A stretch of 64,000 nt of DNA, taken from Roseicyclus sp. (lineage in GTDB: Bacteria; Pseudomonadota; Alphaproteobacteria; Rhodobacterales; Rhodobacteraceae). Every line of letters begins with the position of its first letter. Position 1 is the first letter of the stretch. Positions 7,611 through 62,358 of this stretch are shown in pieces. The stretch is from contig NZ_CBFIIK010000003.1 in NCBI RefSeq assembly GCF_965662675.1, positions 13,401-77,400 on the forward strand, given 5' to 3'. The notes below the pieces were generated by a model, which did no database searches, was not told the DNA's origin, and worked only from the letters and a program-made list of their open reading frames with translations. A program made the position numbers and the translations under genes.

Positions 7611-7634
7611 CCTTCATCTTTCCCAAAATACGCA
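7611..7634 (-). promoter_or_regulatory. 24-nt leader motif (gene orientation TGCGTATTTTGGGAAAGATGAAGG) 9 nt upstream of the folD ATG
   Basis: Identical at 23 of 24 nt to 62335-62358 upstream of dut. Contains an SD-like GAAGG. Confidence 0.4.
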
Positions 7635-16386: not shown

Positions 16387-17451
16387 TCATCTCAGACGCA
16401 TCCCTTCGGGGTTGAAGACAAGCTCGACCTGCCGCCAATCATCATAGCTTTCGGCGGGCAGGCTATATCCGCTGGTCCCACAGCGCAGGATCGCGCGGCG
16501 GGCGGCCTCATAGGCTTGGCGGGCTGCGGCCTCTGATCCACCATCGAAGGAGATCAGGCGCAGCGAGCCATCGACGGGCCGGGCATCGGGGGTCATGTCG
16601 AACCCGACCACGACCGTCGTGCGCTGGGCCTCGTTGCTAAGCGAGCCGACATTCCAACAGGTCGACACAGCCACGCGGAACCCCTCGCGCGCGCCAGCGC
16701 TGAGCGGCGGGCCGGCGGGGGCTGCCGGGGCTTGCACCGCTTGGGCCACCGCCGAGGCGATGGCCGCGGCCAGCGGATCGACAGCGGGTTCGGGTGGCGG
16801 TTCTGGCGCGGGCTGCGGTTCAGGCGCAGCTGCGGCGACTGGTGTTTCGGCCGGGCGTGGGCGCTCGGGTCGCGTCGGCGGCCGGATCGAGGCGACGGGG
16901 CCAAGCGGCCCGCCCGAGGGCGTTTCCGCCTCGGTCACGATCTCGGTCGTGGCCTCTTCGGGGGCGGTTTCGGGCTGTGCCTCGACCGGGCTTGGCGATG
17001 GGGCTGGGGCGGTGGATTGGGTCACGGCCTCGGGGGCGGTCTCGACCTCGGGTTCGGGGGCGGGTGTGGGCAGGGGCGCGATCCGATCGGCGGCGCGCGG
17101 CGTCGGGCGGCCATCCTCGGGCAGATCGGGAGAGCCCGACAACGGCGCGGGTGGCGCCAGCGTATCGGTCACCTCACCCGGCGGGGTGGGTTCAGGCTGG
17201 GGTTCGGGTTCAGGCGCAGGTTCCGGCTCCGGCTCAGGCGTCGGTTCGGGGCGCGGCGGAGGCGGTGCAATTTCCAGCGCAACAGGCGTGGCCGCCGCCG
17301 TCAAGGCATCGAATTCGGCGGTCGACAAGATCGTGACGCCCGTGACCTCGAACACCGGATCAGGGCTTTCCTTGAACAAACCATCCCCGACCGCGACCCA
17401 AATCAAGAGCGCGGCATGTATCGCAGTCGAGGCGTAAAGGGACCGGCGCAT
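16387..17451 (-). CDS. tolA: TolA-like cell-envelope integrity protein (Pro/Glu/Ala-rich linker)
   Basis: N-terminal TM anchor, a long PEPEP/APAP low-complexity region and a C-terminal TolA/TonB-like domain, located between tolR and tolB. Confidence 0.8.
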   Translation of the reverse strand: MRRSLYASTAIHAALLIWVAVGDGLFKESPDPVFEVTGVTILSTAEFDALTAAATPVALEIAPPPPRPEPTPEPEPEPAPEPEPQPEPTPPGEVTDTLAPPAPLSGSPDLPEDGRPTPRAADRIAPLPTPAPEPEVETAPEAVTQSTAPAPSPSPVEAQPETAPEEATTEIVTEAETPSGGPLGPVASIRPPTRPERPRPAETPVAAAAPEPQPAPEPPPEPAVDPLAAAIASAVAQAVQAPAAPAGPPLSAGAREGFRVAVSTCWNVGSLSNEAQRTTVVVGFDMTPDARPVDGSLRLISFDGGSEAAARQAYEAARRAILRCGTSGYSLPAESYDDWRQVELVFNPEGMRLR

Positions 17452-25414: not shown

Positions 25415-25489
25415 CATCTTTGCTTTTCAAATACTCCGGGGGTGCGGGGGCAGCGCCCCCGTGACCCGAGCCCCGCCAAGGGCGGGGCG
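25415..25489 (-). repeat. Structured repeat, copy A (tail + GGGGGCAGCGCCCCC hairpin + GCCCCGCC/GGCGGGGC hairpin)
   Basis: The reverse complement reads GGGGGCGCTGCCCCC..CCCCCGGAGTATTTGAAAAGCAAAGATG. It lies 3' of hss and about 60 nt 5' of the MFS ATG. Confidence 0.75.
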
Positions 25490-36538: not shown

Positions 36539-36602
36539 GGGGGGCGCTGCCCCCCGACGGCCCTTGGCCGTTCCCCCCGGAGTATTTGGGAAGCAAAGAT
36601 GG
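36539..36602 (+). repeat. Structured repeat, copy B
   Basis: GGGGGGCGCTGCCCCCC - ACGGCC/CTT/GGCCGT hairpin - CCCCCCGGAGTATTTGGGAAGCAAAGATGG, between the convergent slyX and MFS genes. Confidence 0.8.
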
Positions 36603-41649: not shown

Positions 41650-43095
41650 ATGACGATCCGGTTTCTTTTGAACGGGGAACCTGTGGATGTCGATGCGCCC
41701 CCCACCGCGACGCTGCTCGATTGGCTGCGCGAGGAACGGCGGCTCACCGGCACCAAGGAAGGCTGTAACGAGGGCGATTGCGGCGCCTGCACGGTCATGG
41801 TGACCAATCCCGAAGGAACATCGCGCGCGCTCAATGCCTGCATCTTGTTCATGCCCCAACTCGCAGGTCACGCGGTCCGCACGATCGAGGGGATCGCAGG
41901 CCCCGACGGCGCACTGCACCCGGTACAACAGGCGATGGTCGATCATCATGGGTCACAATGCGGCTTTTGCACACCGGGCTTCGTGGTGTCGATGGCCGTG
42001 GCCCATCTGAACGGGCGGCACGACCATGACGATCAATTGGCGGGCAACCTGTGTCGTTGTACGGGCTATGCCCCGATCATTCGCGCCGCCGAAGCCGCAA
42101 CCACGGCCCCCATACCTGACTGGATGCGGGTTGATGCGGCCACCCTGGCGGCCTCACCCTTGTGTGTTTCACAAATATCCCCGGGGGGGCGCCATTCGAG
42201 CGCCACTGGTCCGAGCGACAATGGCGGCCGGGACAGACAGCCCCCCACTTGCCCGACATCCGCCGATGAACTCGCCGCTTGGTATCTGGACAACCCCGAC
42301 GCAACCTTGATCGCGGGGGCCACCGATGTGGGGCTTTGGGTGACCAAGGGCTTGCGCGATCTTGCGCCGGTCGCCTTCCTGAACCAATGCGCCGATTTGC
42401 GCGGGATTGTTGCCGATGACGAAACAATCAGCATCGGCGCGATGACCACAATCGCGGAACTCGGCGCATTCATCGCCGACCGCCACCCCGCCTTCGCCGA
42501 GCTGATCCGCCGCTACGGCTCGGTGCAAGTGCGCAATGCCGCCACCATCGGCGGCAATATCGCCAATGGCTCGCCCATCGGTGACAGCCCACCCGCGCTG
42601 ATCGCCTTGGGCGCAACACTGCACCTGCGCCGGGGCGATATACGGCGCAGCCTGCCGCTCGAGGATTTCTTTCTCGCCTATGGCAAGCAAGACCGCGCCG
42701 CCGGGGAATTCGTCGAGGCCGTCACGATCCCCGTCCAGCCGGACCATTTGCGCTGCTACAAGCTGTCCAAGCGCTTCGATCAAGATATCTCGGCGGTGTG
42801 CGGCGCATTCAACATCACGCTTGAGGGTGGCATCGTGACAGCCGCGCGCATCGCATTCGGCGGCATGGCCGGCACGCCCAAACGCGCCCATGCGGCCGAG
42901 GCCGCGTTGATCGGCCAGCCATGGGCCGACACCAGCATCACCGCCGCGCAAGACGCGCTTGCCGCGGATTTCACCCCGCTCTCGGATATGCGCGCCTCGG
43001 CCGACTACAGGCTGCGCAGCGCCAAAGCCATGCTGATGCGCTGCTTGCGCGAAAGCAGGGGCGAAGATGTGAACGTGCTGGCGGTGCAACCATGA
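41650..43095 (+). CDS. xdhA: Xanthine dehydrogenase small subunit (2Fe-2S + FAD)
   Basis: Starts [11 protein letters not shown], with [11 protein letters not shown] and CRCTGY clusters plus an FAD-binding domain. Confidence 0.92.
42166..42246 (-). repeat. Degenerate inverted copy of the structured repeat, in-frame in the xdhA interdomain linker
   Basis: GTTTCACAAATATCCCCGGGGGGG closely matches the copy E tail GTTTCAAAAATATCCCGGGGGG (one substitution, one extra C and one extra G). It is followed by the GGCGC/GCGCC hairpin and a C-run, and encodes [12 protein letters not shown]... Confidence 0.55.
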
Positions 43096-45434
43096 GCGCG
43101 CATGACAGCCTGCCGCATGATGCGGCCTGCCTGCATGTGACCGGGCGGGCGCGCTATGTCGACGATATTCCCACACCTGCCGATTGCCTGCATCTGGCCT
43201 TTGGGCTCTCGCCAATCGCGCGCGGCACGATCCGCGCCATGGACCTTGCCGCTGTCCGGTCGGCACCGGGCGTGGTCGAGGTGCTGGCGGGGACCGATCT
43301 CGACCCGATGCCCGATTGCGCCCCGGCCGCCCATGACGAGCCGCTCTTGTCGGACGGCACGATCCATTACGCGGGCCAGCCGCTTTTCTTGGTGGTCGCG
43401 ACAAGCCATCTGGCCGCGCGCCGCGCCGCACGGATGGCGCGCCTCGATCTGATCGAAGAGACACCGATCCTCGGCGTCGATGAGGCGCTCGCCGCCAATG
43501 CCCGTTTCGAGGACGGCCCACGCATCTATGCCAAGGGCGATGTCGCCGCCGCGATCGCAACGGCCGATCATGTGATCACGGGACAGATCACCCTTGGCGG
43601 ACAAGAGCATTTCTATCTTGAAGGCCAAGCCGCCCTCGCCTTGCCGCAAGACAACGGCGACATGGTGATCCATGCCTCGACCCAGCATCCGACCGAGATC
43701 CAGCACAAGGTCGCCGATGCGCTGGGCTTGCCCATGCATGCCGTGCGCGTCGAGGTGCGGCGCATGGGTGGCGGTTTCGGCGGCAAGGAAAGCCAAGGCA
43801 ATGCGCTGGCCATCGCCTGCGCCATCGCGGCCGCGCGCAGCGGCCGGCCCGCCAAGATGCGCTACGACCGCGATGATGATTTCGTCATCACCGGCAAGCG
43901 CCATGATATCGTGATCGCATACCGGGTGGGCGTCGATGCGACCGGGCGGGTCTTGGGGCTTGATTTCACCCATTACCTGCGCTGCGGCTGGTCGATGGAT
44001 CTATCGCTGCCGGTGGCCGATCGGGCGATGTTGCATGCCGACAATGCCTATGATCTGCCGGCCGCGCGCATCACCTCGCATCGGTTGCGGACCAATCACC
44101 AAAGCGCCACGGCCTTTCGCGGCTTTGGCGGGCCGCAAGGCATGGTGGGGATCGAGCGGGTGATGGATCATATCGCCCATCACTTGGGCCGTGATCCCTT
44201 GGAGATCCGGCGCCTCAATTACTATCCCGAGGCGCATGTGGCCCGGTCCGAGGCCTCCGGCGGGAGTATTTTTGAAGCAAAGATGGCCAAAGATGCGCCC
44301 CGCATCGGGATCACGCCCTATGGGATGGAGGTGCGCGATTTCGTCTTGCATGACCTGACCCAACGCTTGGCGCAATCTTGCGATTATGCCGGGCGGCGCG
44401 CGGAGATTGCGCGGTGGAACGCGCACCAGCCGGTGCTTAAGCGCGGCATCGCGCTCAGCCCGGTGAAATTCGGCATTTCTTTCACGCTCACCCATCTCAA
44501 CCAAGCGGGCGCGCTGGTCCATGTCTATCAAGATGGATCGATCCAGATAAACCATGGCGGCACCGAGATGGGCCAAGGCCTGTTCCAAAAGGTGGCGCAG
44601 GTGGCGGCAAGCCGCTTCGGCGTCGGCATAGAGCAAATCAAGATCACCGCGACAGATACGGGCAAGGTGCCCAATACCAGCGCCACGGCGGCCAGTTCGG
44701 GCACCGATCTGAACGGGATGGCGGTGCAAGCGGCCTGTGACACGATCCGGGCGCGCATCGCCACGCATCTGGCCGCGGTCCATGGCAATGACGATATCCA
44801 TTTCGGCGATGGCTGCGTCCATATCGGCCAAGATCACAGGCTGAGCTTCCGGGAAGCGGTACAGTCGGCCTATGCCGCGCGCGTCAGCCTATCGGCCACG
44901 GGCTTTTACAAGACACCCGATATCGCATGGGACCGCATCGCGGGCCAAGGGCAGCCGTTCTTCTACTTCGCCTACGGCGCGGCCTGCTCGGAGGTGGTGA
45001 TCGACAGCTTGACCGGCGAGAACCGCATCCTGCGCACCGATATCTTGCATGATGCGGGCGCAAGCCTGAACCCCGCGCTCGATATCGGGCAGATCGAGGG
45101 CGGGTTCGTGCAAGGTGCGGGATGGTTGACCTCGGAAGAGCTGGTCTGGGACGATCACGGACGGCTGCGCACCCATGCGCCCTCGACCTACAAGATCCCC
45201 GCCTGTTCGGACCGGCCGCCGGTGTTCAACGTCGACCTGTGGGACCAGCCCAACCGGGCCGAGACGATCTATCGGTCCAAAGCCGTGGGTGAGCCGCCCT
45301 TCATGCTGGGGATCAGCGTCTTGATGGCGCTCTCGGATGCCTGCGGGGCATGCGGGCCGCATTATCCCGACCTGCAGGCCCCCGCGACACCCGAGGCGGT
45401 ACTTGCGGCGATCGACCGGGCGCGTGGGCCATGA
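43092..45434 (+). CDS. xdhB: Xanthine dehydrogenase molybdopterin-binding large subunit
   Basis: ATGA overlap with xdhA; [24 protein letters not shown] and GGTEMGQG motifs. Confidence 0.95.
44229..44286 (+). repeat. Copy of the structured repeat, in-frame inside xdhB
   Basis: CTCCGGCGGGAGTATTTTTGAAGCAAAGATGG matches the tail of copies B and D. It translates to [11 protein letters not shown] inside a loop. Confidence 0.6.
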
Positions 45435-50889: not shown

Positions 50890-50912
50890 TCCGCGACATC
50901 GGTTTTTGGATC

Positions 50913-50943
50913 GGCCCGCCCTTGTGGCGGGCCGTTTCGTTTG
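50913..50943 (+). terminator. Rho-independent terminator of the BMP gene
   Basis: GGCCCGCC-CTTGT-GGCGGGCC followed by GTTTCGTTT. Confidence 0.75.
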
Positions 50944-50961: not shown

Positions 50962-51039
50962 AATTTTCATCCGAAAACTCGGGGGGCGCTGCCCCCGCCC
51001 GTGCCGGGCTCCCCCGGAGTATTTTCGAAGCAAAGATGG
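50962..51039 (+). repeat. Structured repeat, copy D (most complete, with both arms)
   Basis: AATTTTCATCCGAAAACTCGGGGGG-CGCTG-CCCCC-GCCCG/TGC/CGGGC-T-CCCCCGGAGTATTTTCGAAGCAAAGATGG. Confidence 0.8.
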
Positions 51040-55405: not shown

Positions 55406-55473
55406 GGGTGGATGGGTGGCATGGCGGCAGGGGTGGTGGCAAGGGGGGGCGATTGAGGCTCTGTTGATGGCAT
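55402..55473 (-). CDS. Candidate 23-codon Pro-rich leader ORF (MPSTEPQSPPLATTPAAMPPIHP)
   Basis: AGGAGG lies 8 nt upstream of the ATG at 55473. The stop TGA overlaps the ATG of the FAD oxidoreductase (ATGA). Confidence 0.3.
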   Translation of the reverse strand: MPSTEPQSPPLATTPAAMPPIHP

Positions 55474-55568
55474 GGATGCCCCCTCCTGACGGCATCGCAA
55501 TGTGCCAATGTGATGTGTGTTGAAGTCATCACAGAAGGAGAGGACATCCATGCCATCAACAGAGCCCC
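55455..55568 (-). ncRNA. Structured leader element: 32-bp stem closing two small hairpins
   Basis: Arms 55455-55486 and 55537-55568 have a 22-bp perfect core. The 3 mismatches become G-U pairs only on the minus-strand RNA. Inner hairpins are TGTGATG/CATCACA and GGCA/TGCC. Confidence 0.45.
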
Positions 55569-60748: not shown

Positions 60749-60813
60749 CCTTCTTCGTTTCAAAAATATCCCGGGGGGAACACCCGGCACGGGTGTGGGG
60801 GGCAGCGCCCCCC
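60749..60813 (-). repeat. Structured repeat, copy E
   Basis: The reverse complement reads GGGGGGCGCTGCCCCCC-ACACCCG/TGC/CGGGTGT-TCCCCCCGGGATATTTTTGAAACGAAGAAGG. It abuts the stop codon of the moeB-like gene. Confidence 0.8.
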
Positions 60814-62334: not shown

Positions 62335-62358
62335 CCTTCATCTTTCCAAAAATACGCA
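62335..62358 (-). promoter_or_regulatory. 24-nt leader motif (gene orientation TGCGTATTTTTGGAAAGATGAAGG) 7 nt upstream of the dut ATG
   Basis: Identical at 23 of 24 nt to 7611-7634 upstream of folD. Confidence 0.4.

Follow-up and report, generated by a model that had tools for sequence, protein, structure and literature searches.

Selfish DNA inside protein-coding genes is best known from Rickettsia, where the Rickettsia palindromic elements (RPEs) were reportedly described by Ogata et al. in 2000. RPEs are small hairpin-forming repeats of roughly 100-150 nt that are found both in intergenic DNA and in frame in protein-coding genes, where they are translated as extra surface or linker peptides sparing the fold of the protein and are conserved at orthologous sites in related species. 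A repeat sharing these features is described here from a 64,000-nt stretch of Roseicyclus sp. DNA (contig NZ_CBFIIK010000003.1, positions 13,401 to 77,400 of the forward strand), hereafter the window. The copy, designated X, lies in frame in xdhA, the gene coding for the small subunit of xanthine dehydrogenase (XDH), and is probably an old inherited copy of a small structured repeat common in Rhodobacterales intergenic DNA, carried as a passenger in the linker that joins the 2Fe-2S and FAD domains in XdhA. This would extend the phenomenon known from Rickettsia to free-living, high-G+C Rhodobacterales, where it spans an entire order and concerns two fixed positions in a single enzyme.

The RPEs, which are mentioned in PMC3733652, and REP copies inside genes are the nearest known analogues of X, and other classes of short repeats are comparable too. 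The repetitive extragenic palindromic sequences (REPs) with their BIME and REPIN arrangements (PMC3733652) are, like the family of X, abundant short G+C-rich hairpin repeats mostly located just downstream of genes. Di Nocera et al. 2013 (PMC3733652) described occasional REPs located inside open reading frames (ORFs), in some cases at a site shared by related species, such as that in Xanthomonas recB. [quoted passage not shown]

A full-length repeat copy in frame in xdhA

The xdhA gene (41650-43095, plus strand) encodes a protein of 481 aa with the Pfam domains Fer2, Fer2_2, FAD_binding_5 and CO_deh_flav_C, and is followed by xdhB (43089-45434, plus strand), coding for the 781-aa molybdopterin subunit with the domains Ald_Xan_dh_C, MoCoBD_1 and MoCoBD_2 and a match to 1JRO_B. 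The comparison of the window XdhA with R. capsulatus XdhA (2W3R/1JRO) gives 609.8 bits (E 2.7e-182); the window protein is 100% identical to an annotated NCBI Roseicyclus sp. protein, and its 481-aa ORF is intact. X is an 88-base full-length long-form copy at 42159-42246 (plus strand), recognized by a profile match and by its orthologous copies, and encodes approximately residues 171-199, between Fer2_2 (residues 78-147) and FAD_binding_5 (residues 201-362). The first-pass annotation, which had pointed to a repeat copy in this linker, gave the translation, the position between the 2Fe-2S and FAD domains and the terminal C6 run (42241-42246) correctly.

Two nucleotide profiles were used to assign X to a family. 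Profile R1 was built from 26 seed copies including the four intergenic copies of the window and no xdhA-linker copy. The long insert in X restricts the R1 alignment to the head and G-run, and since this insert is a recurring module, profile R2 was built from 11 long-form copies from other organisms (eight metagenome contigs and three xdhB copies), none of them from the window or from an xdhA linker. R2 matches X at 42159-42245 over model positions 6-92 of 93 with 57.5 bits (E~5.5e-17), and R1 matches it at 42167-42192 with 17.9 bits (E~9e-5), both E-values being rough due to shortened calibration, although the margin of the R2 match is large. In the R1 ranking of the window X is fifth, directly after the four seed copies (31-47 bits). 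The model scan proposed in the first-pass annotation thus detects X with both profiles, and the 57.5-bit end-to-end match excludes chance and shows X to be a member of the family.

The window contains six places of one design, namely the full intergenic copies A, B, D and E, a head-only remnant in xdhB, and X. The parts of the family follow each other in a constant order: an AT-rich head of ~25 nt (..CTTCnTCTnnnCnnAAATAYYC) ending in AAATAYYC, a G-run, an optional palindromic insert forming a G+C hairpin of variable sequence, and a 3′ hairpin consisting of a G-run, a short loop (CAGCG, CAGAG or CAGACAG) and a C-run. In X, the AT-rich head CTTGTGTGTTTCACAAATATCCCC occupies 42159-42182 (family consensus CTTCnTCTnnnCCGAAATATCCTC, alignments A1 and A6) and is followed by a G7 run at 42183-42189 able to pair with the terminal C6; this whole region, 42159-42189, aligns to the heads of both models. 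Next comes a nested 39-nt palindromic module, CGCCATTCGAGCGCCACTGGTCCGAGCGACAATGGCGGC, at 42190-42228, made up of an arm, 3 nt, the repeated arm, the loop TCCGAGCGA and the complementary arm. The same layout, with the GCCATTGGTCCGAGNGACAATGGC module between the G-runs, is present in L027, L028, L054 and eight metagenome copies. The element ends with an eroded tail hairpin CGGGACAGACAGCCCCCC (also given as GGGACAGACAGCCCCCC) at 42229-42246, the ancestral form of which is GGGGGCAGACAGCCCCCC: its 5′ arm is reduced to GGG(A), while the loop CAGACAG and the C6 run are retained. An intact tail hairpin is found at the orthologous site in L082 and L084. In the minimum-free-energy fold of X, positions 42184-42190 are paired with 42240-42246, and among the metagenome copies variant G-runs co-vary with the tail stem, e.g. 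GGAGAGGG with CCTCTCCC in L155.

A GGCGC/GCGCC hairpin had also been listed as a part of X in the first-pass annotation. It turned out to be a by-product of the direct repeat GCGCCATTCG / GCGCCACTGG within the nested module, whose conserved pairing partner is CAATGGCG at 42219-42226, and the arm/arm/complementary arm layout of the module rules this hairpin out as a feature of the family.

The likeness of 42166-42189 to copy E, on which the first-pass annotation was based, is borne out. The 22-mer GTTTCACAAATATCCCCGGGGG (42166-42187) has a sole match in the window at up to three mismatches, GTTTCAAAAATATCCCGGGGGG at 60757-60778, with a chance expectation of 0, and the core AAAWAYYCCSGGGG occurs five times in the window compared to 0.34 expected. 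Over its 31 nt, the head of X (42159-42189) is closest among the window copies to that of E (60749-60775), with four mismatches and one indel. The extent given previously requires a correction at the 5′ side only, the element starting about 7 nt earlier, at 42159, where CCCTTGTGTGTTTCAC aligns with CCCTTCTTCGTTTCAA of copy E. The description of X as an inverted copy holds with respect to B, D and the xdhB copy, which are on the minus strand, and does not hold for A and E, which have the same plus orientation as X. The loop of X is of the CAGACAG type and that of the four intergenic copies is CAGCG.

Outside the window, family matches were found in 94 plasmid records, led by the Rhodobacterales genera Phaeobacter, Leisingera, Paracoccus, Cereibacter and Thioclava and including a few other genera, e.g. 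Acidovorax and Variovorax. Among the 40 plasmid matches listed, all are in unannotated DNA, and in one Phaeobacter plasmid three copies adjoin gene ends.

Comparison with described repeat classes

The family differs from the RPEs in the host order, the high-G+C Rhodobacterales, and in size, being ~50-100 nt long and so shorter than RPEs. It is not an overall palindrome and consists of a non-palindromic AT-rich head combined with G/C hairpins; it is likened to the RPEs by description only. As to the REPs, the family lacks a consistent GTAG/CGTC tag and inverted doublets, and its conserved 25-nt head is absent from REPs; no fixed tetranucleotide was seen by eye in the consensus (alignments A1 and A6), in which the middle hairpins vary freely. 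No linked transposase was seen within the 64-kb window, no search aimed at RAYT being made. Terminal inverted repeats, which define MITEs, are likewise missing in the family consensus, as its 5′ end (CTTCATCTT...) and 3′ end (...CAGACAGCCCCCC) are not complementary, and the family has no known parent insertion sequence. X was not flagged as an intrinsic terminator on either strand; the sole candidate of the terminator scan among the copies is a weak one of 5 bp in copy D when read in reverse, with a canonical terminator located 70 nt upstream of it. Since the tag of the REPs, the terminal inverted repeats of the MITEs and the terminator structure of a G+C-rich stem-loop directly followed by a U-tract were tested for and not found, X is described here as working like an in-frame repeat of the RPE type, and not as a member of those classes.

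Rfam gave no matches across the whole window at gathering thresholds, and around E and X at E<=10 chance-level matches alone were obtained, one of them for X. In literature searched by topic and for literal sequence strings, no account of either the family or the 39-nt module was found, so the repeat family is apparently undescribed, and R1 and R2 can serve as profiles for its annotation.

Orthologous copies and linker alleles of xdhA

The age of X was assessed in a survey of 80 Rhodobacterales xdhA loci, in which a strict pattern was used for the full element. A full element is present at the same position of the xdhA linker in 22 of the 80 loci, always in the plus orientation, with just seven full copies found elsewhere within these loci. 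Many further orthologs have eroded heads or tails, and some have linker segments of 16-21 residues with no trace of the element. Copies orthologous to X are located at the same codon position in P0002-P0007, which have 84-86% amino-acid identity to the window XdhA, and far beyond them; all of the close relatives have the element here. At this site, L082 possesses a pristine short form (R1 43 bits) consisting of the head, G8, T and then GGGGGGCAGACAGCCCCCC, with no module, and the long form is present in L084, L086 and L209. A compact form with the head and G6-CTTG-C6 is found in R. marinus, other 466-aa xdhA alleles being decayed further than this one.

It had been suggested in the first-pass annotation that the length polymorphism of the linker be compared with the presence of the element, and the two do coincide: among close relatives the XdhA lengths of 466, 469 and 481 aa correspond to the compact, short and long forms, respectively. 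The ortholog alignments show the position of X to be orthologous in relatives and intact in frame, with the allele forms following the form of the element. A target-site duplication could not be defined as no clean empty site was seen, the "short" alleles keeping eroded remnants of the head or tail.

When the linker is left out, the XdhA tree does not separate the long, short and compact alleles, which are interleaved in it. Between P0004 (L209, 481 aa) and P0013 (L210, 466 aa), DNA windows away from the linker are 88-100% identical, whereas the identity falls to 0.53-0.73 over ~160 nt around the linker (xdhA alignment columns ~440-600), and the linker block of P0004 is 83-92% identical to that of the window. 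Because the divergent block includes xdhA-specific flanks, it is explained by allelic recombination between xdhA genes and not by conversion from an unrelated copy. There thus appear to be two old linker haplotypes exchanged between lineages by recombination, which accounts for the linker-length alleles of XdhA and for their movement.

Two of the intergenic copies are also shared with relatives: copy B has orthologs in L084, L085 and L086, copy D is syntenic in L084, and the stems of both are kept or extended by paired changes. This synteny indicates that the family is old here and has not been recently mobile.

The window XdhA is 19 residues longer than that of R. capsulatus, and 18 of these 19 residues are in the linker. 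The R. capsulatus protein contains the peptide FTLAQLSSGVRGQTAP, which matches the peptide encoded by the element in L079, and at the site of the xdhB copy the R. capsulatus XdhB reads RGGLSAPP..PEPIATKK. On the basis of such matches to element-encoded sequence in related genomes, and not of R. capsulatus DNA, the crystallized R. capsulatus enzyme appears to carry both element-derived segments, the XdhA linker and the XdhB loop. The small-subunit linker and the large-subunit loop of a structurally characterized XDH would then be apparently repeat-encoded.

The copy in xdhB and its relation to X

The second coding-embedded copy is a head-only remnant at 44261-44286 (minus strand; repeat family D2), which is translated within XdhB on the plus strand. 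R1 places it sixth in the window with 11.1 bits (E 0.011). Orthologous remnants are present in L082, L084 and L085, and a full copy occupies this xdhB site in 17 of the 80 loci, always in the minus orientation. The presence of two coding-embedded copies with opposite orientations in adjacent genes, regarded as unusual in the first-pass annotation, is therefore real, but it is not an oddity of this genome: it is a conserved state of xdhAB across Rhodobacterales and hence old rather than the result of a recent event. In R. marinus a further 35 aa are inserted in XdhB beside the repeat site, which marks this loop as an insertion hotspot.

The idea that the two copies could promote rearrangement found no support. 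The predicted duplex between X and the xdhB remnant (-54.1 kcal/mol) is at the background level (-50.1 +/- 7.2 kcal/mol in controls), the 25 longest inverted-repeat pairs listed for 42100-44350 do not include these two, and six related loci (L082, L084, L085, L086, L209 and L210) have the same gene order. Rearrangement between X and the xdhB copy is rejected on this background complementarity together with the conserved gene order.

Origin of X and the constraint acting on it

The findings are probably best explained by the inheritance of an old in-frame repeat copy as a passenger of the XdhA linker. The entry of one copy into the XdhA linker would predate the divergence of the Roseicyclus group by far; a second copy, oppositely oriented, would have come to lie in a surface loop of XdhB, and both would have been inherited ever since. 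In the lineage of the window the xdhA copy would have acquired or inherited the nested 39-nt palindromic module, which gives the 481-aa "long" allele. Translation of the element most likely lengthens the linker by a disordered, Gly/Ser/Pro-rich stretch that the enzyme tolerates, and the element would have no role in the protein. In this genome X is presumably eroding slowly, given the loss of the 5′ arm of the tail and the reduction of its xdhB partner to the head. As with RPEs, the segment is in frame in an intact ORF and in a tolerant region: it is located between Pfam domains, has pLDDT (predicted local distance difference test) values below 50, and is missing from shorter orthologs.

Several observations weigh against a purely passive passenger. 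The AlphaFold2 model, in which residues 169-194 are coil with pLDDT <50 and the FAD domain exceeds 90, is moderate overall (mean pLDDT 68), which makes the disorder call weak when taken alone. A passive passenger is expected to drift at about the synonymous rate, whereas the DNA identity of the linker is 0.77-0.91 compared to 0.49-0.75 at 4-fold sites (12 pairs). In comparisons of the window, L084 and L086, the identity inside X is flat across codon positions (0.77-0.90), with third positions conserved at least as well as first and second ones, while for the remainder of xdhA the first two positions give 0.90-0.94 and the third 0.61-0.79. The Fisher tests on codon-position identity are each marginal (p = 0.05-0.17). 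Conservation outside the protein level is also seen in the rare Ile codon ATA, which 20 of 23 full copies have preserved and which makes up 3.1% of the Ile codons elsewhere in xdhA. The G/C stems are perfect in many lineages, and one compensatory pair was found in the tail stem, GGGCG/CGCCC in P0004 versus GGGGG/CCCCC in L084. In the ten genomes with full copies in both genes, copies of the same genome are more alike than those of foreign pairs (identity 0.72 vs 0.67, p~0.03) and form stronger predicted duplexes (-94.3 vs -81.2 kcal/mol, permutation p~0.002); head similarity was judged here by gapped alignment and duplex energies, as a fixed-register Hamming distance is distorted by register shifts of 1-2 nt. 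In Thioclava (L010), an unusual middle hairpin is common to the xdhA and xdhB copies. Judged from these alignments, the conservation of X is at the level of nucleotides and not of the protein, and these points suggest either nucleotide-level constraint or ongoing gene conversion, both of which go beyond the passenger model.

These nucleotide-level observations are also drawn on by an alternative explanation, in which the intragenic copies are functional nucleic-acid elements under selection. The sense copy in xdhA and the antisense copy in xdhB would form a pair over ~60 nt on one transcript, and a long-range duplex or a local hairpin would set mRNA processing, stability or inter-domain translation pausing, the window copy being a decaying remnant. 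The fixed orientation at both sites across genera (22 plus and 17 minus copies) fits this well, and so does the maintenance of stems in intergenic orthologs by compensatory or extending changes. We nevertheless regard such a function as unlikely: one or both copies have been lost or are left as remnants in many lineages, the complementarity of the window pair is not above background, and gene conversion between genomic copies would yield the same within-genome similarity with no function involved. Single-copy fold energies are also ordinary when compared to dinucleotide shuffles (z -2.5 to +0.9), a weak signal that is not used as evidence. It is equally doubtful, although of considerable consequence if true, that the xdhA and xdhB copies are a conserved intragenic pair, oppositely oriented on one transcript throughout a bacterial order, which co-evolves within each genome and owes its maintenance to selection on nucleic-acid structure (RNA or DNA) or to a dedicated process of conversion; the family and the 39-nt module would then represent a class of small structured or mobile elements new to the Alphaproteobacteria. 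Nucleotide-level conservation together with xdhA/xdhB co-variation makes it possible to test whether function or gene conversion acts on intragenic repeats.

A separate observation concerns L010, L077, L075 and L024, where the xdhA and xdhB copies share genome-specific variants of the head and the middle hairpin and would pair very stably on a single transcript, with predicted duplexes of up to -138 kcal/mol.

Selection on the encoded peptide as such, whether for linker length, for flexibility or for Pro-Pro and Gly-Gly motifs, is improbable. The in-frame retention in many genera, the Gly/Ser/Pro-rich composition suited to a linker and the presence of the segment in the active, crystallized R. 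capsulatus enzyme would agree with it, but codon positions 1 and 2 inside X are less conserved, and position 3 more conserved, than in the rest of the gene. Furthermore, the reading frame of the tail varies from genome to genome (GGQTAP, RGADSPP, GGRQPP), which leaves no common peptide conserved, and many orthologs work with linker segments of 16-21 residues lacking the element. Despite the multiple copies of the family in the window, it is very hard to believe that an active mobile element recently inserted X into this genome, or that a variable G- and C-rich linker came to resemble the family by chance; such an origin is refuted by the ortholog series reaching beyond the 84-86% identical relatives, by the eroded tail and the loop type that sets X apart from the intergenic copies and, for chance, by the end-to-end R2 match.

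The nested 39-nt module

The palindromic module inside X is a lead of its own, with many copies in public metagenomes. At least 120 metagenome contigs contain its 24-nt core, GCCAYTGGTCYGAGNGACAATGGC, and conservation spans ~39-42 nt with the layout of an arm, 3 nt, the same arm again, the loop TCCGAGNGA and a complementary arm. The instances outside the window are located in L087 (1490-1535), L088 (1500-1545) and L089-L168. Eight of 81 instances are nested in host elements, in each case flanked by the G-runs of the head and the tail, and many others are inside transposase-like coding sequence. Two plasmid cases are rve integrase genes, as confirmed by Pfam, and the IS66-, IS5- and IS3-like contexts were judged by eye. 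In Cereibacter, the 39-nt insert is in frame within a TD|RG motif according to a translation read by eye. At the xdhA site, the module is absent from the short-form L082 and present in L084, L086 and L209. A test for ORF healing after removal of 38-42 nt gave no information, as high-G+C DNA often contains long open frames by chance.

One subfamily of the module starts with TGAGCC and ends with ..GAGAGACAATGGCG (also written TGAGCC...GAGAGACAATG); by its sequence it could act as a stop followed by a Shine-Dalgarno-like site and an ATG restart. The same Cereibacter rve gene contains an apparent second in-frame palindromic insert at ~1650-1700 of L087 (..HPW-SEAGQKTIQWIVFPP-NGQVERMN..), which points to small in-frame palindromes being frequent in these genomes.

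Intergenic copies and other repeats in the window

The four intergenic copies are distributed over the window. Copy A, a short form, is located at 25415-25460 (plus strand, R1 31.2 bits), and copy E, the reference copy of the first-pass annotation, at 60749-60813 (plus strand, 46.6 bits). Copy B (36539-36602, minus strand, 44.4 bits) lies downstream of an MFS transporter gene, identified by the Pfam MFS families of its L084 ortholog. Downstream of the B ortholog, at 4800-4870 of L084, the unit ACGAAGGACTCTGGGGCAGCGCCCCCC is tandemly duplicated right after the element tail, and the window has a single degenerate unit. Copy D (50981-51039, minus strand, 40.8 bits, alignment A2) is located between the Bmp and M3-peptidase genes, which were assigned by Pfam on the L084 orthologs. 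A canonical intrinsic terminator, GGCCCGCC-CTTGT-GGCGGGCC followed by TTTCGTTT, occupies 50912-50934 (plus strand), where it immediately follows the Bmp gene and lies ~45 nt upstream of copy D, and thus copy D is not the terminator of this operon.

Near-identical head-only motifs, CCTTCATCTTTCC(C/A)AAAATACGCA, are present at 7611-7634 and 62335-62358 (both plus strand), 8-12 nt upstream of minus-strand ATGs. The compact xdhA alleles of close relatives (e.g. P0013) have the same head type (..TTTCCCCAAATACGCAC), without G/C hairpins. The region 16799-17237 contains repeated GGTTCAGGCGCAG-like units of the direct-repeat family D8 and is probably a repetitive coding segment. Finally, a 31-nt inverted repeat is found at 55457-55487 and 55536-55566, its arms being 94% complementary and separated by 48 nt.

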